A stretch of DNA of 59,464 nt from an uncultured Myxococcales bacterium (GCA_964491625.1 CAZBIU010000001.1:1-59464), one strand, 5' to 3'; shown: positions 1 to 22,636, counted from the first letter of the stretch. Notes: generated by a model from the letters alone, not told the origin. Translations and numbers: made by a program.

Positions 1-417
1 TGCAATCGTGCCACAGCGCTGGCCAGTTCCGCCGCCAGTGCCATTTCCGCCGTTCGTGCCAGATTGCCCGCCCGATCCGATACCACCTCCGCCCGAGCCG
101 ACCGTGCCGCCCGCTCTGATGGTCCCACCCGCGCCGACAGTGCCGCCGACAACCAACGTGCCGCCAGCGCCGATAGTGCTGACTGTGCCGCCAGCGCCGA
201 TAGTACTGACAGTGCCGCCGGCACCCAAGGTCCCGCCGGTGCCGCCCGCGCCACCCATCGACGAGGCCACGTCGCGGTTCGCGCCATCCGGTCCAGGACC
301 GCCGACGCCAGCTTCTTCTATGCCGAGCGGAACGTTGCTACCGCACGCAATGATGCCGACGGCCGCACCTGCAGCAAGAATCCATTGGGTCCGGACGCTG
401 TGCTTGTCTTGAGACAT
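1..417 (-). CDS. Secreted lipoprotein with Gly-rich low-complexity linker, N-terminal part only (gene runs off the left edge); lipoprotein component of ECF cassette 1
   Basis: Not in the ORF track because it has no stop in the window. The reverse strand reads GGAGaaacacaATG (ATG at 417-415), then MSQDKHSVRTQWILAAGAAVGIIACGSNVPLG. That is a signal peptide plus lipobox Cys, followed by GAGGTVSTI-type Gly/Thr repeats, open in frame to position 1. The listed + ORF 8..412 is its Pro-rich antisense shadow. Confidence 0.6.
   Translation of the reverse strand, partial: MSQDKHSVRTQWILAAGAAVGIIACGSNVPLGIEEAGVGGPGPDGANRDVASSMGGAGGTGGTLGAGGTVSTIGAGGTVSTIGAGGTLVVGGTVGAGGTIRAGGTVGSGGGGIGSGGQSGTNGGNGTGGGTGQRCGTIA
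158..211. repeat. 27-bp tandem repeat x2 (plus a partial third copy) inside the Gly-rich linker coding region
   Basis: 158-184 gtgccgccagcgccgatagtgctgact and 185-211 gtgccgccagcgccgatagtactgaca differ at 2 positions. They encode GAGGTVSTI twice on the minus strand. Confidence 0.8.
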
Positions 418-495
418 TGTGTTTCTCCTGTGGAGAGCTTCCATTCAGCGCAACGGTGACCGGCGGGCCCGAGATCCGTTGAAAAAAGAGCAGCC

Positions 496-1245
496 CTATC
501 GTTCGGGCGGAGGGCCGGGTGTGATGCACGTCGCACGCACGCGTTCCGCCAGCGGCGAGCTTGGGGCAAACCGGACAAAGGCCTCGGCCTGCGCGCGCGC
601 CGCCGGACCCGGCGTGGCCTGACAGGTCGCGATCGCCGCAATGGCCCGCCGTTCTTCGCCAAGGACACCCTTGCCGAAGCGCCGATCGTACTCGGCCAAG
701 GTATCGAGCGCTCGCGCGGGTCTGCCCAGTCGCAGCTCTTCGCGAGCGCGGGCGAGCAGCGCCACCTCGGCGTTCAAGGGATCCTCGACGCTCGGCCGCT
801 CCCCATCGCCGGCCAGGGGCGGCAGACGTCTGCGCGCTCGCTCGCCACGGTTGGGCCGGGGCTCGGCGTCTTCTGTAGCAGCAGGCGCGGGCGCGGCAGA
901 ACGGTCAGCCGTGGCTTTGGTCTCGGCTGGCAGCACCTTCCCGGCGGCGAATGGCGCGTGCAAGCTCGTCGCTGGTGGCTTGGGCCGCGGGTCGTGCTGC
1001 GACTTCCAAATCTTGGTCGCACCTACGGAGCCACCTCCCACCAGCGCCGCGGTCACGACGATCAAGCCCACCTTGCTGGCCAGCGACATGGTTCCAGCCA
1101 CTGCGGCCGTGGACGCCGCAACCGTGCCTGCCGCGATCTGCACCGCAAGCCCGCGTCGGATGCGCTCGCGATCGGCGCTGGTCGGGCAATCCGCGTCCCG
1201 AGCGGAATCGACGATGGCTCGGCCTCGCATGTCGAGATCTTTCAT
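496..1245 (-). CDS. Putative anti-sigma factor: single-pass membrane protein with C-terminal TPR-like domain, no zinc (HxxxCxxC) motif (cassette 1)
   Basis: ATGA start/stop overlap with the ECF sigma gene at 1242-1245. Hydrophobic span VGLIVVTAALVGGGSVGA. The C-terminal motif ALDTLAEYDRRFGKGVLGEE is shared with 15218..16354 ([20 protein letters not shown]) and 20859..22061 (ALSALDEYQARYPRGRMLVE). Confidence 0.55.
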   Translation of the reverse strand: MKDLDMRGRAIVDSARDADCPTSADRERIRRGLAVQIAAGTVAASTAAVAGTMSLASKVGLIVVTAALVGGGSVGATKIWKSQHDPRPKPPATSLHAPFAAGKVLPAETKATADRSAAPAPAATEDAEPRPNRGERARRRLPPLAGDGERPSVEDPLNAEVALLARAREELRLGRPARALDTLAEYDRRFGKGVLGEERRAIAAIATCQATPGPAARAQAEAFVRFAPSSPLAERVRATCITPGPPPER

Positions 1246-1838: not shown

Positions 1839-1875
1839 GCCCTTCCATAGTGCCCCGCGCGCCGATTTTCTGTGA

Positions 1876-2886: not shown

Positions 2887-2902
2887 CGCTTTCCGGCGAA
2901 GA

Positions 2903-3724
2903 CTATTCGACCGTCACCGCGTAGTTGCGAATCACCGCCATGCCCGACCCCCGTTGGACTTCGTCGCCCAGCTCGAGATTCGCAATCAGGAGGCGTTTGT
3001 CGACGAGCTTCTGTTTCACGAGATAGTCGATGATCGCGCTCACGTCGAGCGGGCCGTGCAGGATGGGCTTGTCGGCCAGGAGGGAAATGATGGTCCAGGT
3101 GTTTTGATTCTGGCCCGAGTCATCGCCGTGGTTCTTCTGCACGTTTACGCTGTAGGTGTGCCCGTCAATCGTGGTCTCGGCGACCTGGCTGCCGGCCGAA
3201 CCCAGATTGTCGCTGGTTACCCAGATCATCACTTCGTGCGTGATCGCATCCTTGGTGATCGGTTGTCCCGACACCACCCAAAACTCGAAGGCCAGGTTGT
3301 AAGAGCCCGAAGCGCGCAGGTCCACGTCGTAGTTGACCACCAACTTCTTGGTTCCCACTTGGAAGGGGAAACCGGAATCGTGCGCCACTTCGCCCTGCCA
3401 CGGGCTGACGCCCGCGATGACCTCCGGGTAGGTGGCGACCCCCGTGCTGTCGCGCCACTTCCAGACCCAGCCGAACACCGGCTTGCCGTTGTCGTCATTG
3501 ACGAAGATCTTCTGGCGATAGCGCCCGCTGGTCGCGCCCTTGTTCCACGGATTGCTGAACAGGCGATACCGATCGTCGACCAGGGTGTATGCGAAGTCCT
3601 TTTCCGACTCGTAAACCGGCGTGCCCGGCACGGTCTTGAGATCGAAATCCGCCCGCCCGCCGCCGGTGGAACAGGCGATGGCCGCAGACAATAGATAAGA
3701 GCCGAAAAGAACCCTTCGCATCAT
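2903..3724 (-). CDS. Glycoside hydrolase family 12-like lipoprotein (beta-jelly-roll endoglucanase/xyloglucanase type)
   Basis: ATG 3724 gives MMRRVLFGSYLLSAAIACSTGG (lipobox). GH12-like motifs: NPWNKGATSG, THEVMIWV (E-x-MIW nucleophile motif) and ANLELGDEV (second Glu). Only a 16-nt gap to the downstream gene 1876..2886. Confidence 0.6.
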   Translation of the reverse strand: MMRRVLFGSYLLSAAIACSTGGGRADFDLKTVPGTPVYESEKDFAYTLVDDRYRLFSNPWNKGATSGRYRQKIFVNDDNGKPVFGWVWKWRDSTGVATYPEVIAGVSPWQGEVAHDSGFPFQVGTKKLVVNYDVDLRASGSYNLAFEFWVVSGQPITKDAITHEVMIWVTSDNLGSAGSQVAETTIDGHTYSVNVQKNHGDDSGQNQNTWTIISLLADKPILHGPLDVSAIIDYLVKQKLVDKRLLIANLELGDEVQRGSGMAVIRNYAVTVE

Positions 3725-3834
3725 GACGGCCAAGCGTACTCGGGTTGCCGTGCGGCCACAACTGTCGAAGCAAATTCACTTGCGCCCGGCCGCGGCCGTG
3801 TCACCTTTTCCGGCCTCGATTTGGCTGAAGTTCC

Positions 3835-4266: not shown

Positions 4267-4273
4267 CGTTGTT

Positions 4274-5839
4274 CTAGTTGCAGGTCGAGCTGAGCTGCGG
4301 CTTGAGCGCGGTGATTAATGACTGGTAGTTGGTCTCCAACGAGGCGCAGTGATTGAAAGCCATGACCCCCGACGCGATGCGGGCGTTGAGAGTGGCTACC
4401 GTGCTCGGCGACCAGTCCTCGGCAGTGTTGCCCCCACAGCCGTCGTCGACGAAGATCTTCTTGCCCGAAACTTGGTGCAGGTACGAATAGGTGGCGGTTG
4501 ATCCGTTGTACGTGCTGGCCGTGACGCCCGTGTTGAAGAAACCGTTGTTGGTTGCCACGCCCGTCGTCCAGGCGAAGTCGTACTCGACACCAGCGCTCTT
4601 CATCGCATTCCAGTAGCTGTTGGTCACATCGTTTGTGTTCCACGTGGTGTGGTTGAGGGCAACCACAGCGTTGGGCATGTTGCCCTTGATGGCGCACGTG
4701 ATATCCGCGGCCAATTGCGCCAGCTCCGTCATCGTCAGAGGGCTCGACTGCCCGCTGTTCGTGAACTGGACGAAATCGCCCTCGAGCAACCAAACAATTG
4801 GCTTCGCTGGCCACACCGCATACGACTGTTTGGCATAATTGGCGTAGGCCTGAATGATGCTGCTTCGGTGAGCTTTGATAAACGACGCCCCGTCGGTGGT
4901 TAGATTCGGACAATTGGGATTGCTGGAGGGGCACTGATTTCCGTCTACGATTCCGTTGGCGTGTGCGTAGTACCCGATGATGTAGGCGTAATAGACTGGA
5001 ACCAAGCTTGTGGATGCGACTTTGTTCGCCAGCCAAGTGCAGCCGCTGCAGGTACTGAAGGTTCCGTCCGCGGCAATGCCGTAGTCTACCCAGAAGGTAC
5101 TGAATTGAAGAAAGTCGAGACCGCTGAAAGATCCCGCCGGGTCTGAAAGGCCCCAGGCAAAGACACAGCCGAATGGGTTTTGATTGAGTGTGGATGAACC
5201 GCAACTTGAAGGGCTACCCCCGGTGGCCGTTGCCCCGCCGGGACCGGTCGTGGCGCCTCCGGTGCCTGTACGCCCGCCGGAAGCGCTGCTTCCTCCGCTG
5301 CCCCTCGTTCCGCCCGAGCCGGCGGCGCCACCCGTAGCTGTCATACCACCCGCGCTGTTCACACCGGCAGAACCGCCCCCCCCGCCGCTTCCGGTTGCCC
5401 CCCCCGACCTGACCGCACCGCCGTTTCCAGTCACGCCACCTGATCCAGTCGCACCGCCGGCGCTTCCGCCTACCGACGAGCTGGCCCCACCGCTGCCTCT
5501 GCCGCCTGTTGCGGTGACAGCACCACCGGATCCGGGCTCGCCGCCGGCGCTTCCGCCCATGGACAAGCTGGCGCCACCGCTGGCTTGGCCGCCTGTTCCG
5601 GAGATGGCACCGCCGGTCCCGGGAACCCCACCGCGGGCCTTGCCTCCCGTTCCGGGAACGCTGCCCCCGGAACCGCTGGCTGGGGTGGCGCCACCAGTGC
5701 TCGATGTGCCGGTGGCGCCTCCTATACGCGCACCTCCGCTGCCGCCCTCCTGTGACTGCGTGGTGTCGGAACAGGAGAGGGCGAGCGGGCCCAGAACGGC
5801 AAGGCAGCAAGTGATTCGGTGGAATGATCGACAGCGCAT
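4274..5839 (-). CDS. Secreted lipoprotein: long Gly/Ser/Thr linker plus C-terminal glycosidase-like globular domain (family not recognised)
   Basis: 521 aa. Signal peptide ends LALSCS, followed by about 200 aa of GGxGG/GSGG linker and then a ~300-aa Cys-containing domain (PIVWLLEGDF, ALNHTTW). The functional family is a guess. Confidence 0.5.
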   Translation of the reverse strand: MRCRSFHRITCCLAVLGPLALSCSDTTQSQEGGSGGARIGGATGTSSTGGATPASGSGGSVPGTGGKARGGVPGTGGAISGTGGQASGGASLSMGGSAGGEPGSGGAVTATGGRGSGGASSSVGGSAGGATGSGGVTGNGGAVRSGGATGSGGGGGSAGVNSAGGMTATGGAAGSGGTRGSGGSSASGGRTGTGGATTGPGGATATGGSPSSCGSSTLNQNPFGCVFAWGLSDPAGSFSGLDFLQFSTFWVDYGIAADGTFSTCSGCTWLANKVASTSLVPVYYAYIIGYYAHANGIVDGNQCPSSNPNCPNLTTDGASFIKAHRSSIIQAYANYAKQSYAVWPAKPIVWLLEGDFVQFTNSGQSSPLTMTELAQLAADITCAIKGNMPNAVVALNHTTWNTNDVTNSYWNAMKSAGVEYDFAWTTGVATNNGFFNTGVTASTYNGSTATYSYLHQVSGKKIFVDDGCGGNTAEDWSPSTVATLNARIASGVMAFNHCASLETNYQSLITALKPQLSSTCN

Positions 5840-6023
5840 CGCATTTCCTCTAAAGAATATCGGTCTTTCGTGGCCGGAATTCGCGTGCCCCTGATGTGTG
5901 GCATCGCAAGACAGGATGTTAGGGGTCCGGACTGCGATCCGTCAATCAGCCAATCGGCATCGCCAGACCCCCACCGACGATCACCAGGGAGCCGATGCCG
6001 TTTGCCGCCGCGGTGCGCGGGAC

Positions 6024-7652
6024 TCACCTTTTGACGGGAGCCCGATCGCGCTTGCGTCTTCGCCAGAGGGTGGTGGTGCTGATACCGAGGATCTTCGCGG
6101 CCTCGCGCAAACTACCGCCGGTCTGGCGCAGGACCTCGTCGATCTGCTCGCGTTCCACGTCGGCAAGTGACTGTCCGCCAGCGCCACGGCCCGGCCGCGC
6201 GGTGCGGTGGATGATTCCCGGGGGAAAGAGATCCGGGGTCAGGCGCCCGTCGCGGGAAAGCACCGCCGCGTGCTCGATGGCGTTTTCGAGCTCGCGCACG
6301 TTGCCGGGCCACGGGTAGTTGGTGAGGTAGCCGAGCGCCTCGGCCGAAAGCTGCAACGCTGGCAGCTTGAGCTTGGTCTTGAACCGCCCCACGAAGAAAC
6401 GCGCCAGCGGCAGGATGTCGTCCTTGCGTTCGCGCAGCGGTGGAATTGCGACCTCGACCACGCGCAATCGATAGTAGAGATCTTCGCGGAATTGCCCTTC
6501 CGTCATCCTGGCTTCGAGATTCCGGTTGGTCGCGGCCAGCACGCGCACGTCGATGGGCCGGTTTCGGCTTTCACCCACGCGCCGGATCTCCCGCTCTTGC
6601 AGGACACGCAGAAGCTTCACCTGCGTGGCGTGCGAAATCTCGCCAATCTCGTCGAGGAACAGGGTTCCGCCGGCCGCGCTTTCGAACAAGCCCGCATGGT
6701 CGGAAACCGCGCCGGTGAAGGCGCCCGCCTTGTGACCGAACAGCTCGGAATCGAGCAGGGTCTCGGGCAGCGCGCCGCAGTTGATGGCGAGAAACGGCCC
6801 CTTGGCCCGCGGCGATCGATTGTGAATCAGCCGCGCCACGACTTCCTTGCCCACGCCGCTTTCGCCGGTGATGAGCACCGACGAATCGAAGTGAGCGATG
6901 CGGGTCGCGAGCTCGAGCACGCGCGTGAAGGCGGCGCTGCGCACCTCGACCATGGACGGACGCTCGAGTACCGAAAGCCGGCGCGTGTTGGCGTCCAGGG
7001 CGCGCGTCACCTGGCGCAGCTTCTCGGTCAAGTTTCTGATCTTGCCCTGGATATCGGCGGCCGAGAAATACGTCAGGTGCGGCTGCAACTCGCCGCCCCA
7101 CGAAGCCGTGTCCTTGCCCACCGCCGTGCAAACGCGACCGCCCTGCGCGCGACACGACTGCTCGACGAAGTAGATGTTGCGGCCAAGCGCATACGACATG
7201 AAGCCGCTTGCGTAGCCCGCCAACATCCAGCACACCGGGTGCTCCGCCTTCCCGAAGTGGCCCACGTGTTCCTCGGCTTCGCCCGATTCGTGCCACGCCA
7301 CTTCCATCAAAAAGTGCCTGTCACCATCGGTGCTGTCATCAAAGTCGAGCCGCTTGATCACCCAACGGGCCACCCCTTCCATGGCGTGCAAGCGTGCGCC
7401 CGCCTTCAGAAGCTCGCTGGTACGGCTCCAGGAAAAAACCCGGCGCATGGCCGCAGCGTCCGCCTGTCCTCCGAAATAGGCATATCGAGTTAGGATCCTG
7501 CGCGTCTGCCGCGGCCCCACCATTTCGAAAAGATCCTTGCGGAACTGCGCGAAGGCGTCCGCGCTGTGGAGCACGAGCCGTCGGCCTTGGAAGTCGATGA
7601 CCCCATCGCGAAAGGTGAAGAGTTCGTCAAACCGTAGATCGTCGCTGCGCAT
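6024..7652 (-). CDS. Sigma-54-dependent transcriptional activator (XylR/DmpR-like N-terminal sensor with V4R-type region, AAA+ domain, Fis-type HTH)
   Basis: 542 aa. Walker A VLITGESGVGKEVVARLIH; GAFTGA loop in DSELFGHKAGAFTGAV; ELENAIE; C-terminal HTH LREAAKILGISTTTLWRRRKR. Confidence 0.9.
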   Translation of the reverse strand: MRSDDLRFDELFTFRDGVIDFQGRRLVLHSADAFAQFRKDLFEMVGPRQTRRILTRYAYFGGQADAAAMRRVFSWSRTSELLKAGARLHAMEGVARWVIKRLDFDDSTDGDRHFLMEVAWHESGEAEEHVGHFGKAEHPVCWMLAGYASGFMSYALGRNIYFVEQSCRAQGGRVCTAVGKDTASWGGELQPHLTYFSAADIQGKIRNLTEKLRQVTRALDANTRRLSVLERPSMVEVRSAAFTRVLELATRIAHFDSSVLITGESGVGKEVVARLIHNRSPRAKGPFLAINCGALPETLLDSELFGHKAGAFTGAVSDHAGLFESAAGGTLFLDEIGEISHATQVKLLRVLQEREIRRVGESRNRPIDVRVLAATNRNLEARMTEGQFREDLYYRLRVVEVAIPPLRERKDDILPLARFFVGRFKTKLKLPALQLSAEALGYLTNYPWPGNVRELENAIEHAAVLSRDGRLTPDLFPPGIIHRTARPGRGAGGQSLADVEREQIDEVLRQTGGSLREAAKILGISTTTLWRRRKRDRAPVKR

Positions 7653-7766
7653 GGCGTTTCACTATGAAACGTCATATCTCATATTGCAATGACGGCGACG
7701 CCGTGCTCCGGTTGCTGCTCGCGGCAAGTCCCCGCGACGATTGTGGTTCGGCGCCCGGGCTTCCTT

Positions 7767-7782
7767 CGGCACGCCGCTTGCT
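7767..7782 (+). promoter_or_regulatory. Sigma-54 (-24/-12) promoter candidate for the M20 peptidase-ackA operon
   Basis: cGGCACGccgcTTGCt against consensus TGGCACG-N4-TTGCW. GG at 7768-7769 and GC at 7780-7781 have the canonical 12-nt offset. It lies 46 nt upstream of ATG 7828 and is divergent from the sigma-54 activator gene. Confidence 0.55.
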
Positions 7783-7827
7783 GAATACCCAGGCAAGTCA
7801 CGCTTTGGCCACAACGAAAGGAACCCC

Positions 7828-9045
7828 ATGTACGATCTGATGAAGAACAAGCTCGAAGGACTGCAAGGCGAGCTCGTCGCATTCGCGCAGGAGCTACTGC
7901 GCACCCACAGCCCGAGCGGCGACGAGCACAAGGTCGGCGCGTTGGTCGTCGACCAGATGAACGCCCTAGGCTTCGACAAGGTCTTCGCCGACGAGCTGGG
8001 TAACGCCGTGGGCGTCATGAACGGGATCGAGGACGGCCCGACGCTGCTTCTGTCGAGTCACATGGATACGGTGGGGACAGGCAACCTTGGCACCTGGAAC
8101 GAATCACCCTTCAGCGGCCGCATCGAGGCCGGGCGCCTGCATGGGCTCGGCGCCGCCGATTGCAAAGGCGGGCTCGCCGCGCAGGTGTTCGCGGCCGGGC
8201 TCATCAAACGCAGCCTTCTGCCGTTGCGAGGGCACCTGGTGGTGGCGGGCACGGTGCTGGAAGAAAACGGCGTTTCCATCGGCATGCGAGGTCTGGTCAG
8301 CCACACCTTGAAAGAGATGGGCCTTTTCCCCGACTACGCCGTGCTGGGCGAGCCCACCGACCTGGGCCTCTTTTACGGGCACGACGGCCGGGCCGAATTG
8401 GAAGTCACCGTTCGCGGTATCAACCCTTTCCGCGTCACCGACGCCGCCGAGCTGGTCAGCCGCGCGCTCGATGACGCCGGCGGCGACAGCGGGGTCGAGG
8501 AAGTGGCGATGGGCGAGACCCGCTTCGAGGACGGCCCCGGCTTCCGCCAGGCGGTCATCGCGCTCGAACGTCGAATGGGATCGAACGACACCATCAACCA
8601 TCTGCTCTCGCGCATGCGCGGCGAGGCGGTGCGCGCGGCCAGCACCGCGGGCGCGGTCGACGTCGAGGTCTGCGTGCGCGAGCGCAGCGAAGTTTTGCCG
8701 AACGGCCTGGTGGTGAAGGCGAAGCGAATCACGCAGGCGTGGTCGACCGACCCTTTCAGTCCCTTGCTCTCGCGGTCGCGCCAGGCCCTGTCCGCGGCCG
8801 GCTGCGAAGTCAGGCCGGGACGCTGGAAGCTGGCTCGCCTGGGCATGGGCACCGCCGGCAGCCTGCTGGTGAACGAGCACGGCATCCCCACCGTCGGCTA
8901 CGGGCCTGGCCACGAGGAACAGGCGCACCGCGAAGGCGAATCGGTCGCCATCAGCAAGCTCGTCGACTGCGCGTACGGAACCGCGGCCATCGCGCACAGC
9001 TTGGTCGGCGTGCCGGTGTTCGGTTGGATTCCGGACAGCTTGTAG
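7828..9045 (+). CDS. M20-family metallopeptidase / deacylase (YgeY / ArgE / DapE-like)
   Basis: ATG 7828 preceded by AAAGGA. Motifs LLLSSHMDTVGTG, GLGAADCKGGLAAQV and VLEENG (metal and catalytic Glu motifs of M20). Confidence 0.85.
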   Translation: MYDLMKNKLEGLQGELVAFAQELLRTHSPSGDEHKVGALVVDQMNALGFDKVFADELGNAVGVMNGIEDGPTLLLSSHMDTVGTGNLGTWNESPFSGRIEAGRLHGLGAADCKGGLAAQVFAAGLIKRSLLPLRGHLVVAGTVLEENGVSIGMRGLVSHTLKEMGLFPDYAVLGEPTDLGLFYGHDGRAELEVTVRGINPFRVTDAAELVSRALDDAGGDSGVEEVAMGETRFEDGPGFRQAVIALERRMGSNDTINHLLSRMRGEAVRAASTAGAVDVEVCVRERSEVLPNGLVVKAKRITQAWSTDPFSPLLSRSRQALSAAGCEVRPGRWKLARLGMGTAGSLLVNEHGIPTVGYGPGHEEQAHREGESVAISKLVDCAYGTAAIAHSLVGVPVFGWIPDSL

Positions 9046-9052
9046 GCACACC

Positions 9053-10264
9053 ATGCGCATCGTCGTTTTCAATTGCGGCAGCTCCTCGCTGAAGTATCGG
9101 CTCATCGACATGCCCGGCGAAACCGAGTTGGCGGCCGGAGAAGCGGAGCGCGTCGGCCCGAAGACCGCCCTGCCCGGCTGCATCCACCACACCGCCTGGG
9201 GCAACAAGGAAGACCACCCCATGGACATGCCCGACCACGGTACCGCCTTCTCGGCCGTGATGAAGCTGTTGGAACGCGATTCACGTCTGGTTCCCGAAGC
9301 CATCGGGCACCGCATGGTTCACGGCGGCGCCATCTTCAAGGATCACGTGATCGTCGACGACGCTGCTTTCCACCACCTGGAGGAAGTGCAAGATCTCGCG
9401 CCCATCCACAACCCTCCCGCGCTGCGACTCTTAGCCGCGTGCCGGCAGCTTTATCCCAAGCTGCCCGAAACCGTGGTGTTCGATACCGCCTTTCACTCGA
9501 CCATCGGGCCAGCGGCGCGCGAGTATGCCCTGCCGCACGGGCTTGCGCGCGCGCATGGCTTCCGCAAGTACGGCTTCCACGGCACCAGCCACCAATACGT
9601 CGCAGAGGAGGCCGCAAAGTTCCTCGGCATTCCCATGTCGGAATTGTGCGCGGTCAGTTGCCACCTGGGTAGCGGCGGCGCCAGTCTGTGCGCCATCGTG
9701 AACGGCCGCTCGGTCGACAACACCATGGGCTACTCGCCGCTGCAAGGCCTGGTCATGAGCACGCGCTCGGGCGACTTGGATCCGGCGATCGCCCTGTCGC
9801 TGGTCGCGCGGGCGCAGGGCGACGGCCACGCGGTGGAAAACCTGCTCAATCGCAAGAGCGGGCTTTTGGGCCTGACCGGGGTGTCAGCCGACATTCGCGA
9901 TCTAGTGAAATCCGACGGCGGCGTTCAAAGCGATACGCTCTCGCGCGCGGCCCAGGTGTACCTGTGGCGAATCCGCAAGTATCTCGGAAGCTATCTCGTG
10001 GTCACCGGGCGTCCCCACTGCATCATTTTCACCGACACCATCGGCGAAAAGATCCCCTCCGTCAGGTGGGCCGTCACCGCCGGGCTGAATGCCTTGGGCG
10101 TGGTTCTCGATGCGAAAAAGAACGCCGAGGCGAAGGCCCTGCCGGTGGATCTCTCGGCGCCCGAAAGCCGGGTGCGTGTTCTGGCCATCGCCACCAACGA
10201 AGAAATCGCCATCGCCCGCGCGAGCTACGCCCTGCTTTGCAAACAAGAAAGGCTCGTATCATGA
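9053..10264 (+). CDS. ackA: Acetate (propionate) kinase
   Basis: 403 aa with the full motif set: VVFNCGSSSLKY, HRMVHGG, VFDTAFHST, RKYGFHGTSHQYV, CHLGSGGASLCAI, DNTMGYSPLQGLVMSTRSGDLDP, IATNEEIAIAR. Confidence 0.9.
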   Translation: MRIVVFNCGSSSLKYRLIDMPGETELAAGEAERVGPKTALPGCIHHTAWGNKEDHPMDMPDHGTAFSAVMKLLERDSRLVPEAIGHRMVHGGAIFKDHVIVDDAAFHHLEEVQDLAPIHNPPALRLLAACRQLYPKLPETVVFDTAFHSTIGPAAREYALPHGLARAHGFRKYGFHGTSHQYVAEEAAKFLGIPMSELCAVSCHLGSGGASLCAIVNGRSVDNTMGYSPLQGLVMSTRSGDLDPAIALSLVARAQGDGHAVENLLNRKSGLLGLTGVSADIRDLVKSDGGVQSDTLSRAAQVYLWRIRKYLGSYLVVTGRPHCIIFTDTIGEKIPSVRWAVTAGLNALGVVLDAKKNAEAKALPVDLSAPESRVRVLAIATNEEIAIARASYALLCKQERLVS

Positions 10265-11313: not shown

Positions 11314-11319
11314 CCCGGA

Positions 11320-12654
11320 TCAGTGGAGGTACGGCTTGATCACCCCATACCAGTTGTCGCCCATCCACGGGTAGCCGGTGGCGATATTGGGGTGCACGCC
11401 GTCGCTGCTGAGCCCGTCGCTCGGCATGTTGGACATGTCCACGAAAAGCACGTGTGCGCCCTGGGCCGCGCGTTGTTGGACGGCGCCGGGGATGGCGGCG
11501 TCGTACGTGGCGACGTTGGCAGCACACTGGGTCGGGGTGTAGTTGGTAGACTTGCAACCCGGGAACGGATAGATCGACGAGACGACGAGAAGGGCATCGG
11601 GAACCGCGGCGACGATCTTGTCGATGAGCGTCCCCAGCCTGTCCGATGCGCCGGCCTCGCTGCTCGCGTAGCCCTCGTCGTTGGTACCGATGAACAAGAG
11701 CACGATGTTCGGCATATCCCTGAGCGCGCCGGCGTACGATGTCCCGGAAACCGTCACGGTCTGCGCCGTGGTGGCGATGTTGTTGACCTGAGTAATCGTC
11801 CACCCGATGTGCCCTTCGTTGTTTTGAGGAAATGTCTGGCCGTCGAGGGTGGTGGGCCCGCTCTTCAGGCTTCCGACGAAGGTGACGTGCTTGCTGTCGT
11901 TCACCGCGCGGGTGAAAAGCTGATCGCGGTATCCTCCCCCATCGCCTGGGTCGGCGCCTGCGCCGTAGGTGATCGAATCTCCGAGCGGCAGGATCTTGCA
12001 ATTGCCGGTTGCCGGACAGGGATTGAATCCGGAGGAACCTGCCTCCGTCGCGCCACCGGTGCCGCCTTGGGCATACGCATCCGACGCGTCGGCCCCCACC
12101 GTCCCCACATCGCGGCTGCTGCCGCTGCTGCCGCCATCAGAGCCGCCCAGCCCCCCCGCAGCGCCACCGGTGCCGCTCTGAGCATGCGCGTCCGAAGCGT
12201 CGGCCCCGGCCGCCGCGGCATCGGGGCTGGTGCCGCCGCTGCCCCCGCCGGGGCTGCTCAGCCCACCGCTGCCGCGGCCTGTGGAGCCGCCCGCGCTCCC
12301 GCCCGAGGCGTTGGAGGCTCCGCCGCCGCCGCCCGAGGCGCTGGAGCTACCCCCGCTGCGGCTTGCAAAACCTCCGCTGTTGCTGCCTCCAAAGCTGCCG
12401 GAGCTGCCCCCGCTGCCGCGGCCAGCAAAACCTCCGCTGTTGCCTCCGCCGCTGCCAGTCGAGCCAGAGTCTCCGCCGCTGGGGCCTCCGGAGCCTCCCC
12501 CGCTGCCGGTGCCGCCCTGTCCCGCCCTACCTCCCCCCTGGCCGCTAGTCGTGTTCGAGTTGGAAGAGCATGCGAGCCCCAGACAAAGCGCAAGAACGAT
12601 ACCTGCGCGCCTGAACTGCGCAGCGGCTTGGTCAAGAGCTGTCGTGTGCTTCAT
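11320..12654 (-). CDS. SGNH/GDSL-family hydrolase lipoprotein (carbohydrate esterase-like) with long Gly/Ser linker
   Basis: ATG 12654 gives MKHTTALDQAAAQFRRAGIVLALCLGLACSS; an alternative ATG at 12693 is possible. About 200 aa of Gly/Ser linker, then the SGNH blocks CKILPLGDSITYG, NEGHIGW, LLFIGTNDE and DGVHPN. Paralogue of 51513..52790. Confidence 0.8.
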   Translation of the reverse strand: MKHTTALDQAAAQFRRAGIVLALCLGLACSSNSNTTSGQGGGRAGQGGTGSGGGSGGPSGGDSGSTGSGGGNSGGFAGRGSGGSSGSFGGSNSGGFASRSGGSSSASGGGGGASNASGGSAGGSTGRGSGGLSSPGGGSGGTSPDAAAAGADASDAHAQSGTGGAAGGLGGSDGGSSGSSRDVGTVGADASDAYAQGGTGGATEAGSSGFNPCPATGNCKILPLGDSITYGAGADPGDGGGYRDQLFTRAVNDSKHVTFVGSLKSGPTTLDGQTFPQNNEGHIGWTITQVNNIATTAQTVTVSGTSYAGALRDMPNIVLLFIGTNDEGYASSEAGASDRLGTLIDKIVAAVPDALLVVSSIYPFPGCKSTNYTPTQCAANVATYDAAIPGAVQQRAAQGAHVLFVDMSNMPSDGLSSDGVHPNIATGYPWMGDNWYGVIKPYLH

Positions 12655-12740
12655 TCCTGTACCTCGTTTTCTCGGGTCGGTCGACTGGATCATACTCCGT
12701 CGCGTCCTCCGCGGCCGTTCCAAGGGCCGATCAATTACAA

Positions 12741-13571
12741 TTATAGTGTCTGTGCTCGCTGCAATCCGAGCTTGCCTAACGCTCGCAGATAGCGGAATCC
12801 CTTTTCGGTTACCTGAAAATGTCGATGCAGATCGCTGTTCAACCCACCTTCCCGTTTCACGGTGCGCAGTCCTTTGCCCGGGAGACGTTCGATCATCTCC
12901 TTCTTCGCGAGCTCATCGAGCTCCTGCTTGAAGGTATCCGAGGCTTCGTACACGAAGGGTTCTGGCGCGGCCAATTTGCGCAAATGGACCATGTGCCAAT
13001 ACCCAAGTTGGCCCTGCTTGAGCAATCTGAGATCATCACTTTGAAGGTCCGCGGCCTGTAACTGTTCGTCGATATCGGCTGAGCTGATCGAGTCTGATTG
13101 CAGCGAATGAGAAGCGAGGTCGCCGAGCATGTCCACGATGCTTTCGACCACCCTGACCAAAGCCGACTCGCGATCGACCTCACTCATGCCCGCAATGGGT
13201 GCGGACAGTGAATTCGCAGCCTGGTAACGCGCGAGCGTGGGAAGCAGACCGATCACCGAAGGTTTGACGATGACTGGCACAACCCGTTTGCCAGCTGGCC
13301 GCTGGCCCGTGCCTTCCAAGATGTTGCGAAGCTCCGTCTTCATGATGAAATCGGATGCGAGGAAGTCCGCTGTGATCAGTGCGACGATAACGTCGGCATT
13401 CTCAAGCGCCAATGCAATTGACTCGTGCCAATCCTCGCCGGTTGCGATCTGCTGATCCGACCAGACATCCAACATACCGTTGCTAACCAGTGGCTTCAGG
13501 TGAAGCGCGAGCCTGTCCATCCAGGTTCTGTCGACATGGGAATAGCTGATAAAAACCTTTCCGTTGGGCAT
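12741..13571 (-). CDS. TIR-domain protein with uncharacterised C-terminal (possibly winged-helix-like) domain
   Basis: N-terminus KVFISYSHVDRTWMDRLALHLKPLVSNGMLDVWSDQQIATGEDWHESIALALENADVIVALITADFLASDFIMKTEL matches the bacterial TIR_2 pattern. The gene is clearly lower in G+C: two hand-counted 60-nt samples were 50%, against 73% in a neighbouring gene. Confidence 0.8.
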   Translation of the reverse strand: MPNGKVFISYSHVDRTWMDRLALHLKPLVSNGMLDVWSDQQIATGEDWHESIALALENADVIVALITADFLASDFIMKTELRNILEGTGQRPAGKRVVPVIVKPSVIGLLPTLARYQAANSLSAPIAGMSEVDRESALVRVVESIVDMLGDLASHSLQSDSISSADIDEQLQAADLQSDDLRLLKQGQLGYWHMVHLRKLAAPEPFVYEASDTFKQELDELAKKEMIERLPGKGLRTVKREGGLNSDLHRHFQVTEKGFRYLRALGKLGLQRAQTL

Positions 13572-13700: not shown

Positions 13701-14594
13701 ATGCTGATTGCCGGTCTGTCCGCCCTGCTTGCGCTACTGTCAGTGCAAGTCGAGTCCGCGGATTGTCCGGCGGGGCCGGAGGTCGAGCTGACGCTGGCAA
13801 GGCTGCTGCCACCGCCATCGGGAATTGTCCGACCCAACCGTGCACACGTCTGGAAGCAAGATGGCCTCCTGCAGATCGAGCTGGTGAATCCCGACGGCGC
13901 GGTGGTTGGCCGGCGTTCGCTTGAAGCCCGGGGAAGCTGTGCGGAGATGGCTGACATGGTCGCCGTGGTGATCGCAAGCTGGGAAAGCGATGTGCATCCC
14001 GCGTTCGTCGCTCCGCCGACCGAGCTGCCGGCCTCAGCGGCGCCCAGCCCGCAGCGCCGGCCGTCTCCGCCATCGTCAGGTTCCAGCTTCGACCTTGGCC
14101 TCGGCGCAGGCATCTCCTTCGCCGACTCCGCTGCTGCTCTCGGCTCGGCCAGCATCACCTGGGTCCCGAGCGGCGGTGGACCAGGAGTCCGGGTCTCTGC
14201 TTTCGGCGAGACACAACGAACCATCACCCTCGGCGCGGGTCAGGCAGATTGGCGCCGATGGATGGGCAGCGCCGATGCCGACTGGCGCCTCTACCACGGC
14301 CGCGTCGCCTTCGACGGGCACGCCGGTTTGGTATTGGGCTGGCTTTCGATCGAAGGAACGAGCTTCGCCGAAAACAGATCGCCGTCGTCATTTTCACCTG
14401 GCGTTGGCCTGGGTGGACGGGTTGCGTGGTGGCCGGGCCGTCATTTCGCGGCTTGGTTTGACGTTCAGGGCCTGCTTTGGCTACGCAGACAGATCGCCTA
14501 CAGCGAACCCGGCCCTACCGAGCGCGACGTCCCAAGATTCGAGCTATTGGCGCAATTCGGCGTGTCGACCGGACGAATGGCGAAAGATCGGTAA
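13701..14594 (+). CDS. Secreted protein B2: N-terminal two-Cys domain, Pro-rich linker, beta-barrel-like C-terminal half (cassette 2)
   Basis: Internal ATG 13701 gives the signal peptide MLIAGLSALLALLSVQVESA. Contains DCPAGPEVELTLARLL ... RSLEARGSCAEMADMVAVVIASW, then a Pro/Ser-rich linker and a Gly/Trp-rich region. Paralogue of 1876..2886 and 19999..20862. Confidence 0.6.
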   Translation: MLIAGLSALLALLSVQVESADCPAGPEVELTLARLLPPPSGIVRPNRAHVWKQDGLLQIELVNPDGAVVGRRSLEARGSCAEMADMVAVVIASWESDVHPAFVAPPTELPASAAPSPQRRPSPPSSGSSFDLGLGAGISFADSAAALGSASITWVPSGGGPGVRVSAFGETQRTITLGAGQADWRRWMGSADADWRLYHGRVAFDGHAGLVLGWLSIEGTSFAENRSPSSFSPGVGLGGRVAWWPGRHFAAWFDVQGLLWLRRQIAYSEPGPTERDVPRFELLAQFGVSTGRMAKDR

Positions 14595-14628
14595 GGTTAG
14601 GGCGAGACCGGCGCACAGAGAGCACATC

Positions 14629-15225: not shown

Positions 15226-16354
15226 CGAAACCCGGGCAAGGGTGACGCGCTGGCGGGATCGACCGCAGGGCGGCGACACGATCGAAGACCGCGCCGCGAC
15301 TCTCGTGCGCAAAGCCCTGGCTCCTGGGGAGCCGGACCAAGCCACGCTGGAACGCATCGAAAGAAGAATTCGCGGTGTCCGCCAACAGCCTTTCCATACC
15401 CGCTTCGTCTTTCGCCTGGTCTTCATCTCGCTGTTCTTGTTCGCCGGGGTTGCCTCGGTCAAAGCCTACGAGATGATTCGCAAGGCAGCTTGGCTACACC
15501 GCGATTCCACCCCGGCACTTGCACCGACGCCAGCGCCAAAGTTGTCGCACCGACGGGCCTTGCGACCAGGCCAGCCGGGCACATCCGATGAGACCGCGCT
15601 AACTGTTCCGCCCGCCGCCATCCCCGCGTCGGCGTTCCGATCTGATTCAATTTCGCCTGCAGCCGCCCCGCCCGCCGATCGCGAGCCCCACGGAAAGGCC
15701 AAGCCGATACGGCGCGAGGTCAGCGAAATGCCCGGGCAGCCGGTCGCCGAGGCTGCGCCGGCAACCCTTGCCTCACCTGAACCACTTGGTCCGCCGTCAG
15801 GGGCGTTCGCCCCCACGCGCGGTCTGGCTCCGACACCAACTTCGCCATCCTCGCCGGACGAAATCGCCGCGATCGATCGGGCCATGACCCTCTTGCGACG
15901 CGATCACAATGCAGAAGTCGCGCTCTCGGCGCTCGATGCCTACCTTGCGCGCTATCCGAACGGCGTCCTGAACCGCGAAGCCCGGTTCGGAAGGGTCGAC
16001 GCCTTGCTGATGCTCCGCCGCTCCGACGACGCCTTGCGGGCGCTGGAGTCGGTGCCTCTCGATAGCCACCGTCGCTCGACCGAGCTGCAAGTGATTCGCG
16101 GGGAGCTGCGATCCCAAGGCAATTGCGCGGGCGCTATCGCAGATTTCGGGCAAGCCCTGGGTCACAGTCCCGACGCTGCATTGCTGGAGCGCATTCTCTA
16201 CGGCCGCGCTGCCTGCCTTGCCAAGACCGGTGACAGCGTCGGAGCGGCCTCTGACCTGCAACGCTACCTTGAGCGCTTTCCACAAGCGCCCCACGCCGCC
16301 TGGGCGCGTCGCTGGCTCGCAGATCACGAAAGGCCGACAGAAAACAAGCGTTAG
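15218..16354 (+). CDS. Putative anti-sigma factor: single-pass membrane protein with Pro/Ala-rich spacer and C-terminal TPR-like domain (cassette 2)
   Basis: 8-nt overlap with the sigma gene (ATG 15218, sigma stop 15223-15225). TM segment [20 protein letters not shown]-terminal [32 protein letters not shown] and helical repeats. Confidence 0.55.
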
Positions 16355-16400
16355 GTTTTGCAACCGCCGAACCACCCACAGCAGAAACAAGGAGATCACC

Positions 16401-17449
<1,049 letters not shown>

Positions 17450-17453
<4 letters not shown>

Positions 17454-17698: not shown

Positions 17699-17841
17699 GC
17701 ACGAGAGTGTAGCGCGCGGACGAGCCAAGGGAAATCAATCTGCTCAGCGGAATCATGGACACGACCATCGCTTCCGGCTTTCCTGCCGTGGCCGTGGTGC
17801 CGGGCAGCAAAGCGGTGCTTTGAAATGCTATTCTTCGCGGC

Positions 17842-18597
17842 GTGAAGCTCATCTCGTGGAATGTGAACGGCCTGCGAGCCGTGCTGAAGCGCAACTTTCA
17901 GGGCTACTTCGCCAAGGAAAAACCGGACGTCATCTGTCTGCAAGAAACCAAGTGCGGCCCCGACGACGTCGATGCGGCCTGGCCCAAGGGCTACACGGTG
18001 TACTGGAACCCAGCCGAAAAGAAAGGCTATTCGGGAACCGCCATCCTGACCAAAGTCCCGCCCATTGACGTGCGCCCGCACATGAACGTTCGCGAGCACG
18101 ACCGCGAAGGCCGAATCTTGACCGCCGAATTTGCGCGCTTCTATCTGGTCAACGCCTACGTGCCGAATGCCAAGCGCGACCTCAGCCGACTGCCCTACCG
18201 AGAGCGCTGGGACCGCGACTTCCTCGTCTACCTACGCCGGCTCGAACAGAAGAAGCCGGTCGTCTTCTGCGGCGACCTCAACGTCGCGCACACCGAGATC
18301 GACCTCTTCCATCCCAAGGCCAATGAGCACAACCATGGTTTCACTGTCGAAGAGCGTGCCGGATTCGACAACTTCGTGAAAGCCGGCTTCGTCGATAGCT
18401 TTCGGGCCTTCAACACCTCGGGCGGCCACTACACTTGGTGGCGCCCCTTCGGCGACGCGCGCGCTAAGAACGTGGGTTGGCGCATCGATTATTTCCTGGT
18501 CAGCGGCGCCTTGCGCCCGCGACTGACGAAAGCCTTCATCCGCAAGAACGTGCTCGGATCGGACCATTGCCCGGTGGGAATCGAAATCAAGGTCTAG
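17842..18597 (+). CDS. xthA: Exodeoxyribonuclease III (AP endonuclease)
   Basis: 251 aa. Motifs MKLISWNVNGLRA, DVICLQETK, NAYVPN, GDLNVAH and SDHCPV. Confidence 0.9.
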   Translation: MKLISWNVNGLRAVLKRNFQGYFAKEKPDVICLQETKCGPDDVDAAWPKGYTVYWNPAEKKGYSGTAILTKVPPIDVRPHMNVREHDREGRILTAEFARFYLVNAYVPNAKRDLSRLPYRERWDRDFLVYLRRLEQKKPVVFCGDLNVAHTEIDLFHPKANEHNHGFTVEERAGFDNFVKAGFVDSFRAFNTSGGHYTWWRPFGDARAKNVGWRIDYFLVSGALRPRLTKAFIRKNVLGSDHCPVGIEIKV

Positions 18598-18607
18598 AGC
18601 ACCGGGC

Positions 18608-19954: not shown

Positions 19955-19998
19955 GTCTGTCGAGTAGCGTGAAGGGTCCGAACCTTACAACCGCGGCA

Positions 19999-20862: not shown

Positions 20863-22061
20863 GGCGTGGCACTTTCCATACGCGCCGCCGCCGCGGCAAA
20901 ACGCCCGCGCGGAAACCGCCGCAGGTATTCCCTGGCGTCGAGACGCGCGCCTTCCCGGTCGCCGCGGCCCGCACGACTTTGCGCCCGTCCCCACAGCGCG
21001 CCTTCCAGCGAAGCGAGATCTCGCACAGGCGCACGAGCCAGCACGCCGCTGAAATCCGCCTCGGCTTCCCGGTACCGGCCCGCGCCAGCCCGCAATTCGC
21101 CGCGCTGCAGTTGCCGTTCGATCCCTCCTGGCATCTGAGCAAGAGCGAGTCCGTCGAGGATGCGCAGCGCTTCCGGGTTTCGTTTCAGGGCCGACAGCGC
21201 GTCCACGCGCAGCACCTGAGCCTCGACCAGCATGCGACCACGGGGATATCGGGCTTGATATTCGTCCAAAGCAGAGAGGGCCAAGCGGGGGTCGTTCTCG
21301 GCTCGCAACGCCCGCACCGCCGCTGCCAAGAGTCGCTCCTCGCTGATGGGCTCACGCCCGACGGATGGCGCGAAATCGGCAGAGCGCGCGGCCGTGGGGA
21401 CCGCGGCGGGCGCATGGGCAGCAAGCGGCGCTGCCGGCGCTGTCGCGACCCGCGCGGGCGAGGGCGGCTCGGGCGCGACAGCGGGTGGAGAAACCGGGGC
21501 TTCAACCCGCTCGGCAGATTGGGCCGCTACCGGGACGACGGCCGCGGGGAAGGATCGCAGCGCCACTTTTCGCGCGCCCGTGGGCGAACGCGCAGGCAAG
21601 GTCGAGTCCACCGCGGAGCTCTCGTCGGTGGTTGCTCGGGCTTCCATTTTTGGCGCCCCCGACTGCACCTTCGCCGGTTCGGGTTCGGCCTCAGCCTCCG
21701 ATGCGGTCGGCGCGGGCGGCTTGCTTACCGAACGCCTTGAACGGGTGGCCCGCGCGCCAGTCACAGTGTCGGTTTCGGTCGGCGTCGAAGCCGAGGGTCC
21801 GCGCTTGAGAACCAGCCGGTCGAGCACGACGCCGAATGCAGCGCCACACACCAGGCAGAACGACGCAATGACCGCCGGAGCCAGCCAGCGTGCTCGGCGA
21901 ACCAGACCGGTTCGCGTGCTGACCAGCAAGCGTCGCTTGATGCGCGCGTGGACCGCCGCGGACAAGGGCGGAAGCGCCCGGCCACCCTCCAGCAGCGCAT
22001 CCGCGATCGCCAGCGACGGCTCATCGCGCCCGGCGACTGGCGGGGGCCCGGCGGCCTTCAT
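20859..22061 (-). CDS. Putative anti-sigma factor: single-pass membrane protein with long Ala/Pro-rich spacer and C-terminal TPR-like domain (cassette 3)
   Basis: ATGA overlap with sigma gene 22058..22636. TM segment WLAPAVIASFCLVCGAAFGVVL. C-terminal ALSALDEYQARYPRGRMLVEAQVLRVDALSAL. Confidence 0.55.
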   Translation of the reverse strand: MKAAGPPPVAGRDEPSLAIADALLEGGRALPPLSAAVHARIKRRLLVSTRTGLVRRARWLAPAVIASFCLVCGAAFGVVLDRLVLKRGPSASTPTETDTVTGARATRSRRSVSKPPAPTASEAEAEPEPAKVQSGAPKMEARATTDESSAVDSTLPARSPTGARKVALRSFPAAVVPVAAQSAERVEAPVSPPAVAPEPPSPARVATAPAAPLAAHAPAAVPTAARSADFAPSVGREPISEERLLAAAVRALRAENDPRLALSALDEYQARYPRGRMLVEAQVLRVDALSALKRNPEALRILDGLALAQMPGGIERQLQRGELRAGAGRYREAEADFSGVLARAPVRDLASLEGALWGRAQSRAGRGDREGARLDAREYLRRFPRGRFAAAAARMESATP

Positions 22062-22636
22062 GGTTCTTCCTCCAGGGCGGCGAGCACCTCGGCCAACTTG
22101 GTGCGCGCTCGGTGAAGCCGAACCCAGACGTTGCCCACCTCGTCGCCGGTCAGCTCGGCGATGGCCTCGCCCGACATTCCGTCCAATGCAAACAAAACCA
22201 GAACCGTCCGGTATTTCTCAGGCAGACGATCCAAGGCGGCGTACAGGTGAAGGCTCTGCTCGCGACGCAACACCTCCTCGACCGGGGTGGGCACGCTCGC
22301 AAGCGCGTCCGCATAGGCCTGCCCATGCTTGCCCCACAGCCACCTGCGAATCGTATCGTTGCGTCGCCGCCAGCGCACCACCTGCTGGGTAATTCTGAAA
22401 AGCCAGGTCGTGACTCGGGCTTCGCCGCGAAACTCGTGCCGTCGGCGCATGACCACCAGGAAGATGTCGTGCAGCAGATCCTCGGGATCGATCCGTGGCC
22501 CGGCCAACCGACGCGCCCAGCGTTCAACCTGCGGGGCATAGCGGTCGTAGATAACCTCCACGGAATCCGGAATTTCCGATCCGCTCGCAAGCGGGCGATT
22601 CTTTGGGTCCGACATGGTGGAATTGACGTCGCGCAC
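22058..22636 (-). CDS. ECF-type RNA polymerase sigma factor (cassette 3)
   Basis: EDLLHDIFLVVMRRRHEFRGEARVTTWLFRITQQVV and RTVLVLFALDGMSGEAIAELTGDEVGNVWVRLHRARTKL. The start could instead be the internal ATG (MSDPK) 21 nt downstream. Confidence 0.85.
   Translation of the reverse strand: MRDVNSTMSDPKNRPLASGSEIPDSVEVIYDRYAPQVERWARRLAGPRIDPEDLLHDIFLVVMRRRHEFRGEARVTTWLFRITQQVVRWRRRNDTIRRWLWGKHGQAYADALASVPTPVEEVLRREQSLHLYAALDRLPEKYRTVLVLFALDGMSGEAIAELTGDEVGNVWVRLHRARTKLAEVLAALEEEP

Follow-up and report, generated by a model that had tools for sequence, protein, structure and literature searches.

Three diverged copies of an ECF sigma factor module with a predicted outer-membrane barrel protein and a variable lipoprotein in an uncultured Myxococcales bacterium

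In a stretch of 59,464 nt from an uncultured Myxococcales bacterium (GCA_964491625.1 CAZBIU010000001.1:1-59464), referred to in the following as the window, we find three diverged copies of a gene module in which a sigma factor of the extracytoplasmic function (ECF) type is encoded together with a putative membrane-bound anti-sigma factor, a predicted small outer-membrane barrel protein that we name B, and a lipoprotein. The reading that we prefer, and to which we assign a probability of roughly 0.55, is that each of the cassettes C1, C2 and C3 forms a complete ECF signalling system of its own across the envelope and would switch on one variable lipoprotein. The three cassettes are old paralogues, ~30-39% identical, and represent three distinct subtypes of a B-containing module that is, in our view, widespread in Polyangia and a so far uncharacterised form of ECF signalling across the envelope. 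No description of an ECF sigma/anti-sigma/B/lipoprotein module was found in the available parts of the ECF classification text and of the literature.

Three diverged cassettes

An earlier note on the same DNA had delimited twelve open reading frames (ORFs) for the three cassettes, all of which were found at the coordinates and on the strands given there (Table 1). The gene overlaps that it had described were likewise recovered: the sigma and anti-sigma genes share ATGA in C1, 8 nt in C2 and again ATGA in C3, and in this last cassette the anti-sigma gene overlaps the B gene by ATGA too.

When all components were aligned against each other (BLASTP), the sigmas proved to be paralogous, with pairwise identities of 33-39% (E 1.5e-18 to 1.7e-37), and both the anti-sigmas and the B proteins of C2 and C3 were clearly homologous. 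The two anti-sigmas are 45% identical across the C-terminal ~130 residues (E 1.5e-22), and the two B proteins can be aligned end to end at 31% identity (E 2.6e-22). The kinship of B proteins and anti-sigmas that had been claimed for all three cassettes holds pairwise for C2 and C3, whereas the C1 members, in the case of the anti-sigma too divergent for any pairwise match, are reached via profiles. The C1 anti-sigma gave no significant match to the C2 or C3 anti-sigma in the all-vs-all comparison, and the C1 B aligned with the C2 B in the N-domain alone (E 1e-4). A B-family hidden Markov model (HMM) made from 129 database representatives, with the C1 B excluded, scored the C1 protein at E 1.3e-14. 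Homology and profile searches found no further copy of any component in the window.

Conservation of the module in other loci

A set of 58 loci was collected (L001-L058), of which L001-L055 were annotated by HMM (B, sigma, anti-sigma C-domain), and the context of L056-L058 was read from called genes. B adjoins an ECF sigma and an anti-sigma in every locus with enough flanking sequence, save L041 and L043. The order is always sigma, anti-sigma, B among C3-type orthologues and always B, sigma, anti-sigma among C2-type orthologues, and the C1-type orthologues (L011, L012, L057 and L058) have B, sigma and a short anti-sigma of ~245-250 residues. The link between B and the sigma/anti-sigma pair is kept also in more remote members (L010, L013, L056 and the P0224 locus), with two genes inserted between B and sigma at the P0224 locus; the anti-sigma of L013 has a weak precomputed match to FecR. 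The two exceptions, which are seemingly closely related, carry a full-length B (at 3866-4837 in L043) without a recognisable sigma or anti-sigma gene alongside. Downstream of B these two loci contain many overlapping ORFs and no clear gene, and upstream of it lie a small CxxCH lipoprotein and a second Pro-rich, Gly/aromatic putative barrel protein.

The earlier note had made its proposal depend on B co-occurring with this kind of sigma in other genomes, and with the two exceptions above B does keep adjoining an ECF sigma in the sampled loci. It had also preferred selection on co-occurrence to a recent block duplication, a preference that we share because the paralogues are old and each type keeps its own gene order in other genomes. 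The adjacency would be meaningless if an ECF operon, duplicated locally and recently, had merely landed among unrelated outer-membrane protein and lipoprotein genes that are abundant in the genome. Polyangia genomes are indeed rich in ECF sigmas according to the accessible part of the ECF classification supplement, and the window holds at least four lipoproteins with Gly-rich linkers outside the cassettes, but the paralogues are merely 30-39% identical and differ in gene order, each type is conserved in many contigs, B lies by an ECF sigma in all sampled lineages but the two related loci, and the promoter-like motifs described below are paired within each module and different between lineages. 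We give this explanation, which the conservation data contradict, next to no probability.

Two modules lie a few kb apart in the Polyangia contigs L008 (626-3381 and 6001-6927) and L020 (478-1853 and 3179-6929) as well, so local clustering of paralogous modules is recurrent and not unique to the window. In L011 and L012, B, sigma and anti-sigma are kept and the lipoprotein gene is absent, a hairpin and then a membrane Sel1-repeat protein being found instead, which ties B to the sigma/anti-sigma pair and not to the lipoprotein.

Paired promoter-like motifs

When the intergenic regions of the loci were aligned, a bipartite motif of fixed spacing emerged that occurs twice per module, once upstream of the sigma gene and once upstream of the lipoprotein gene (Table 1). 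The sequence of the motif differs by lineage but pairs within each module: the C1-type consensus is CA(A)CGGAT-N13-GGGCAC at both places, the consensus of both C2-type sites is G(G/T)T(A/T)AGGTT-N-GCAC, and L056 has TG(A/T)AACGTCT... at both places. A degenerate version of the C1 pattern matches the window only twice, at the sigma site (1850-1874) and the lipoprotein site (456-481), and exact TGTAAGGT is likewise found at two sites only. Counting both strands, the window has five occurrences of GTWAGGT, and four of these are the module sites at 14591, 16350, 19988 and 22682, all correctly oriented. With one mismatch allowed, TGTAAGGT was found 10 times in the window against 10.4 expected and is thus not enriched; the signal lies in position, orientation and conservation across loci and not in the raw count.

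Autoregulation and the recognition of group-specific -35 and -10 elements are common among ECF sigmas. A motif that changes between lineages and yet remains paired within the module fits the expectation for an ECF sigma that controls its own gene and one dedicated target beside it. The lipoprotein had been put forward as either the sensed partner or the regulated output, and the paired motifs favour the second option: judged from these sequences, the lipoprotein gene is likely the regulated output of the sigma.

The B protein family

None of the three B proteins is matched by any model in Pfam or NCBIfam. A 21-sequence profile, run exhaustively with HMMER, returned 3,470 cluster representatives (50% identity) at E<=1e-3, of which 519 scored at E<=1e-30. 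All named members are annotated as 'hypothetical protein' and the organism, where stated, is a Polyangia metagenome-assembled genome (MAG); a genome scan with the C2-type alignment yielded 7 loci, and the taxonomic range of the family, as far as it is known, lies within Polyangia MAGs. The C3 B has 33 orthologues at 47-61% identity, and the C1 B orthologues P0213 and P0222 sit in matching synteny. We regard B as a previously undescribed family of predicted outer-membrane proteins comprising thousands of sequence clusters.

The C2 B was modelled with AlphaFold2 at a mean pLDDT of 87.6, with values mostly >90 in the barrel (129-292) and low confidence in the linker (100-125). Foldseek searches of the PDB with the barrel retrieved the transmembrane domain of OmpA, OmpX, OmpW, Ail, NspA, the N-terminal barrel of OprF and the Thermus protein 3dzm, with E values between 3e-8 and 1e-4 and, relative to target length, TM-scores of 0.6-0.77. 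We therefore predict with high confidence that B is a small OmpA/OmpX-like outer-membrane barrel of 8-10 strands, the likeness being one of fold and not of sequence family. The model thereby agrees with the earlier suggestion of a small outer-membrane barrel with a separate N-domain, between which a Pro-rich linker is predicted.

Modelled alone, the N-domain reached a pLDDT of 89.1 and folds as a helix, three strands and a helix. Among 60 diverse B members, C22 and C80 are its only invariant residues, and this Cys pair is probably disulphide-linked. No significant structural neighbour of the N-domain was found in the PDB (Foldseek, best E 0.048), which argues that it is not a signalling domain of the STN/FecA type. 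STN and POTRA identities were both considered and dropped, since the best matches were ribosomal proteins and the periplasmic domain of VtrA (E 0.05-0.09, TM-score ~0.5). Longer members of the family differ chiefly by extended Pro-rich linkers of up to ~150 residues, as expected of a periplasmic tether. One member, P0072 (390 aa), looked like a fusion of B and sigma, its B N-half running into sigma region 2; it was rejected, since a frameshift or an assembly error at the B-sigma junction is its most likely origin.

Sigma factors and putative anti-sigma factors

All three sigmas carry Sigma70_r2 and Sigma70_r4_2 over the Pfam cut-offs within 192-198 residues, as ECF (group 4) sigma-70 factors do, and score 82-95 bits with TIGR02937 against a cut-off of 42.9. 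None of them reaches a subfamily or equivalog cut-off in NCBIfam, where the FecI-type models stay far under their cut-offs. Among the entries listed in the supplementary tables of the ECF classification, the peptide motifs of the sigmas and the promoter motif led to nothing useful and no group was assigned; TAAGG occurs in no group promoter motif among those listed there. In the part of that supplement available to us, little or no genomic context is given for the Polyangia-specific groups ECF210, 216, 220 and 267.

A profile of the anti-sigma C-domain was built from 27 orthologues and run on 580 ORFs of the window. The C2 anti-sigma, in which TPR_16, TPR_19 and TPR_6 exceed the Pfam cut-offs, matched at E 2.4e-68, and besides the C2 and C3 proteins the C1 anti-sigma was the sole additional match, through its residues 158-203 at E 1.1e-4. 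This match is confined to the first ~47 positions of the profile, corresponding to the helix pair with the pattern ALxxLxxYxxR(F/Y)xxGxL. The pattern and a periplasmic TPR domain had been attributed to all three anti-sigmas, which is borne out for C2 and, by homology, supported for C3 but in C1 does not extend beyond the first helix pair. The C3 anti-sigma remains under the Pfam TPR thresholds, yet is homologous to the TPR-positive C2 protein, and the C1 anti-sigma has the first hairpin alone. Orthologues of the latter, of 247-253 residues, are present in L011 and L012.

Lipoproteins with a constant start and variable cargo

From signal peptide and lipobox Cys, the fourth gene of each cassette is predicted to encode a bacterial lipoprotein. 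The C3 lipobox AYAC is atypical at -3, the genes at orthologous positions having canonical lipoboxes, and the Cys-rich C-terminal part of the C3 protein has no match in Pfam. A Gly-linker lipoprotein directly follows the triad of B, sigma and anti-sigma in nearly all C2- and C3-type loci and in addition in L010, L013, L044, L056 and L057; the C1-type lipoprotein of L057 starts with CGSNVSLGALD, followed by the Gly linker. The cargo varies even among close relatives, while signal peptide and post-Cys segment stay constant, and includes DUF4215 Cys-rich repeats, propellers of the RCC1 and Vgb-lyase types, GH8, PSCyt3/PSD4/PSD2 and Cys-rich regions that belong to no family. The lipoproteins had been described as not homologous past their linkers, a statement that has to be refined: the cargo does differ, but a module-type-specific post-Cys segment is constant within each type (Table 1).

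Gly-rich linkers are evidently common among the lipoproteins of this genome and were also seen outside the cassettes, in the lipoproteins at 4274-5839, 11320-12723 and 51513-52790 and, in short form, in the GH12 lipoprotein. The first three, all on the minus strand, have linkers of up to ~200 residues and two of them carry a GDSL lipase; GTWAGGT was found upstream of none of the three. The linker of the C2 lipoprotein (~16497-16656, plus strand) contains five near-perfect tandem copies of a 10-residue unit, and repetitive linker DNA of this kind could promote the swapping of cargo between related modules.

The constancy of the post-Cys segment while the cargo is exchanged suggests that it is recognised by a protein of the module, and B might accordingly be a dedicated partner of the lipoprotein, as anchor, assembly factor or conduit, and no sensor, with the sigma/anti-sigma pair answering another cue. 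The Gly-rich linker would then pass through or along the barrel and the cargo be displayed, in the manner of RcsF-OMP complexes and Slam-dependent surface lipoproteins. Complexes of lipoproteins with barrels are a known principle, and the hydrophobic-x-x-Gly post-Cys segment is absent from three of the four non-cassette Gly-linker lipoproteins. Against such a role, L011 and L012 keep B, sigma and anti-sigma with no lipoprotein gene, the C3-type B is translationally coupled to the anti-sigma and not to the lipoprotein, the C1- and C2-type B genes lie outside the transcription unit that bears the lipoprotein motif, and eight-stranded barrels generally have no open lumen. In our judgement this account is unlikely.

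The post-Cys segment also varies together with the module type, and TPR domains are protein- and peptide-binding modules that accept extended peptides among their ligands. It can thus be imagined that the module monitors the trafficking of the lipoprotein by way of a feedback, in which the TPR domain binds the N-terminal segment of the lipoprotein or a mislocalised form of it, B is the docking site, and sigma activity reports lipoprotein supply or delivery by a logic like that of NlpE/Cpx and RcsF/IgaA. The sigma-type motif before the lipoprotein gene would close the regulatory loop. The binding of lipoprotein by the TPR domain is purely hypothetical, however, the TPR-like domain of the C1 anti-sigma is rudimentary, and no lipoprotein is encoded in L011 and L012; we consider such monitoring quite improbable.

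Table 1 Features of the three cassettes and of the neighbouring GH12 gene in the window, with the post-Cys segments of each module type.
Feature	Coordinates	Strand	Description
C1 ECF sigma, 198 aa	1242..1838	-	Pfam Sigma70_r2 2e-14, r4_2 7.7e-12; TIGR02937 95 bits, over cut-off
C2 ECF sigma, 198 aa	14629..15225	+	Pfam r2 and r4_2; 39% identity to C3 sigma, E 1.7e-37
C3 ECF sigma, 192 aa	22058..22636	-	Pfam r2 and r4_2
C1 putative anti-sigma, 249 aa	496..1245	-	short cytoplasmic N-terminus, one transmembrane helix, Pro/Ala linker, short C-terminal helical domain; ATGA overlap with sigma
C2 putative anti-sigma, 378 aa	15218..16354	+	~60-aa cytoplasmic N-terminus, transmembrane helix, ~150-aa Pro/Ala linker, TPR ~228-375
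C3 putative anti-sigma, 400 aa	20859..22061	-	C-terminal TPR-like domain; profile E 7.6e-63; ATGA overlaps on both sides
C1 B, 336 aa	1876..2886	-	signal peptide, Cys-pair N-domain, Pro-rich linker, divergent barrel half ending ...LRF
C2 B, 297 aa	13701..14594	+	N-domain ~22-96, linker 100-125, predicted beta-barrel 129-292; family HMM E 3e-94
C3 B, 287 aa	19999..20862	-	E 2.6e-22 to C2 B; family HMM E 2e-64
C1 predicted lipoprotein, cut by window end	1..417	-	lipobox IIAC, CGSNVPLGIEE segment, Gly-rich linker
C2 predicted lipoprotein, 350 aa	16401..17453	+	lipobox LAAC, linker of 10-residue unit x5, five DUF4215/TIGR02232 Cys-rich repeats
C3 predicted lipoprotein, 448 aa	18608..19954	-	lipobox-like AYAC, CSSEFPAGIG segment, Gly-rich linker, Cys-rich C-terminal part
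C1 post-Cys segment			CGSNV(P/S)LG; window copy CGSNVPLGIEE
C2 post-Cys segment			C(K/G)xD(S/R)L(F/L)xGEN
C3 post-Cys segment			C(T/S)SSFPAGID; genes at orthologous positions C(T/K)SSFPAGID; window copy CSSEFPAGIG
C1 sigma motif, CACAGAAA-N12-GGCAC	1850..1874	-	conserved as TCACGGA(T/A)-N13-GGGCAC(T/A)AT in L011, L012, L057, L058
C1 lipoprotein motif, TCAACGGAT-N13-GTCAC	456..482	-	same motif before orthologous lipoprotein genes in L057, L058
C2 motif between B and sigma, GGTAAGGT-N15-GCAC	14590..14616	+	GGTAAGGTT-N-GCAC in 13/13 distinct C2-type loci
C2 lipoprotein motif, CGTTAGGT-N15-CCAC	16349..16375	+	GGTTAGGTT-N-GCAC(C) in 12/13 distinct C2-type loci
C3 sigma motif, TGTAAGGT-N12-GGCAAC	22658..22683	-	TGTAAGGT-N12-(C/T)GCTAC in 10/10 distinct C3-type loci
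C3 lipoprotein motif, TGTAAGGT-N12-CGCTAC	19964..19989	-	~10 nt before ATG; 9/10 distinct C3-type loci
GH12 lipoprotein gene	2903..3733	-	Pfam Glyco_hydro_12; 16 nt upstream of C1 B; same place in L011, L012

Discussion

The envelope-spanning signalling unit that we prefer would work as follows. The anti-sigma would be a single-pass inner-membrane protein whose short cytoplasmic N-terminus holds the ECF sigma, an assignment suggested by the translational coupling of the two genes, the short cytoplasmic N-terminus and the single transmembrane helix. A Pro/Ala-rich linker of ~150 residues would carry its TPR-like domain into the periplasm. B would reside in the outer membrane, and a Pro-rich tether of 30-150 residues would let its small Cys-pair alpha/beta domain hang down into the periplasm. 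Both proteins have long Pro-rich tethers, and we infer that the N-domain of B could touch the TPR domain of the anti-sigma across the periplasm. In this way the state of the outer membrane or the cell surface may control the stability of the anti-sigma, and a perturbation would free the sigma, possibly by regulated proteolysis as in other ECF systems. The free sigma would then drive two lineage-specific promoters, that of its own gene (autoregulation) and that of the neighbouring lipoprotein gene.

Several points weigh against this scheme. The role of the anti-sigma is deduced from position, translational coupling and topology, and no known family of anti-sigma domains in Pfam or NCBIfam covers its cytoplasmic N-terminal parts. 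The contact proposed for the N-domain of B and the TPR domain is hypothetical; Rosetta-stone fusions of B with an anti-sigma were not found among the long members of the B family, and as the C1 anti-sigma has approximately one TPR-like hairpin, the partner surface must differ between the module types. It is by their conservation that the promoter-like motifs were recognised. The one upstream of the C3 lipoprotein gene, with its predicted -10 element, leaves ~10 nt to the ATG, and the motifs of L056 (1560-1600 and 3210-3250) lie about as near, so a leaderless or nearly leaderless mRNA would be implied. In the C1 and C2 types B is upstream of the sigma motif and may be expressed independently of it. 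Finally, the Gly-rich linker had to be rejected as a module-specific trait, since at least four lipoproteins outside the cassettes have the same kind of linker and disordered N-terminal linkers are general among outer-membrane lipoproteins.

Dma and ECF21 of Bacteroidota, which the earlier note had not mentioned, are the nearest precedent for the proposed signalling unit, and by analogy the module described here resembles a split version of it without being a member. The Dma anti-sigma is a single polypeptide that runs from a cytoplasmic domain through a transmembrane helix and a long disordered stretch to an 8-stranded outer-membrane barrel (PMC10927553), and in the ECF21 subgroups s9, s16 and s28 the barrel is a separate +2 gene (supplement, bioRxiv 10.1101/2019.12.11.873521). 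As in Dma, the anti-sigma of an ECF sigma would here be linked to a small outer-membrane barrel via a long disordered periplasmic segment, and the presumed target is a lipoprotein, NigD1 being a key regulon member in Bacteroidota. Unlike Dma, barrel and anti-sigma are separate genes in all our loci, with no fusion among the long B-family members; B has a Cys-pair domain in addition at its N-terminus, and the C-terminal domain of the anti-sigma is TPR-like; the B barrel has no detectable sequence homology to OMP_b-brl_2 (Pfam); the putatively regulated lipoprotein is encoded within the module and has exchangeable cargo; and the module belongs to Myxococcota (Polyangia), whereas Dma is reported to be restricted to Bacteroidota.

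With FecA-FecR-FecI the module would share an outer-membrane protein with a periplasmic N-domain, an inner-membrane anti-sigma with a periplasmic C-domain, an ECF sigma and a neighbouring target. It differs from that system in that B is a protein of ~290 residues with a small barrel and not a TonB-dependent transducer of 22 strands, that B has no STN domain (Pfam, and the PDB search with the N-domain, in which nothing matched at E<0.048), that none of the three window anti-sigmas matches FecR (PF04773) in Pfam at E<=0.1, and that the presumed target is a lipoprotein and not a receptor. The SigX-CfrX-CmpX-OprF system of Pseudomonas (ECF102) is likewise an ECF operon with an OmpA-family outer-membrane protein implicated in regulation (PMC7826278), but OprF, a major porin, has a peptidoglycan-binding domain at its C-terminus, and that system has neither a TPR anti-sigma nor a module lipoprotein. 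Like RcsF-OMP-IgaA, the module would combine an outer-membrane barrel with a lipoprotein whose N-terminal linker is disordered and with an inner-membrane protein that has its sensor domain in the periplasm; there, however, the output is a phosphorelay and here an ECF sigma, the components are non-homologous, and the lipoprotein is here apparently the regulated product.

Hybrids of signalling, a lipoprotein-partner function of B and the monitoring of trafficking are possible. B, the TPR domain and the lipoprotein 'handle', for instance, might form one trans-envelope complex that checks the delivery or threading of the lipoprotein at the barrel and tunes the sigma, with the handle and the promoter acting as a socket for cargo swapped by recombination. 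Such a complex, which would be a non-covalent Myxococcota counterpart to Bacteroidota's dual-membrane-spanning anti-sigma, we regard as speculative and rather improbable.

ECF sigmas are a major form of bacterial signalling, and Polyangia, a class of myxobacteria, carry very many of them, almost none with an assigned function. The module offers a concrete architecture for a large set of these sigmas, together with a predicted promoter for each lineage and a single neighbouring gene as the likely target, the cargo of which is swapped between close relatives. If B does signal to the anti-sigma, the coupling of anti-sigma factors to outer-membrane barrels would not be confined to Bacteroidota and would have arisen in split form in another phylum. 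Pairs of sigma and promoter that are orthogonal to each other would also be possible regulatory parts for synthetic biology.

Neighbouring genes

The surroundings of C1 are shared with L011 and L012 beyond the module itself, including acetate kinase, an M20 peptidase, a XylR-type sigma-54 activator and the GH12 gene directly upstream of B. In the window the block of XylR-type activator, M20 peptidase and acetate kinase occupies 6024-10264, and with GH12 it is syntenic with C1-type metagenome loci (L012 1-5940). A block TTGTGGCC...GCAACCC, conserved in the window and L012, precedes the GH12 gene; a sigma-54 promoter was considered at this place and rejected, as the GG/GC spacing is unlike the -24/-12 consensus.

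Directly upstream of C2 and divergent from it lies a gene for a TIR_2 protein of 276 residues (12741-13571, minus strand; N-terminal domain, Pfam E 3.8e-18), which possibly serves in defence or signalling and is not evidently connected with the module. The sole gene that separates the convergent lipoprotein genes of C2 and C3 is an Exo_endo_phos gene (17842-18597, plus strand; Pfam E 6e-40).

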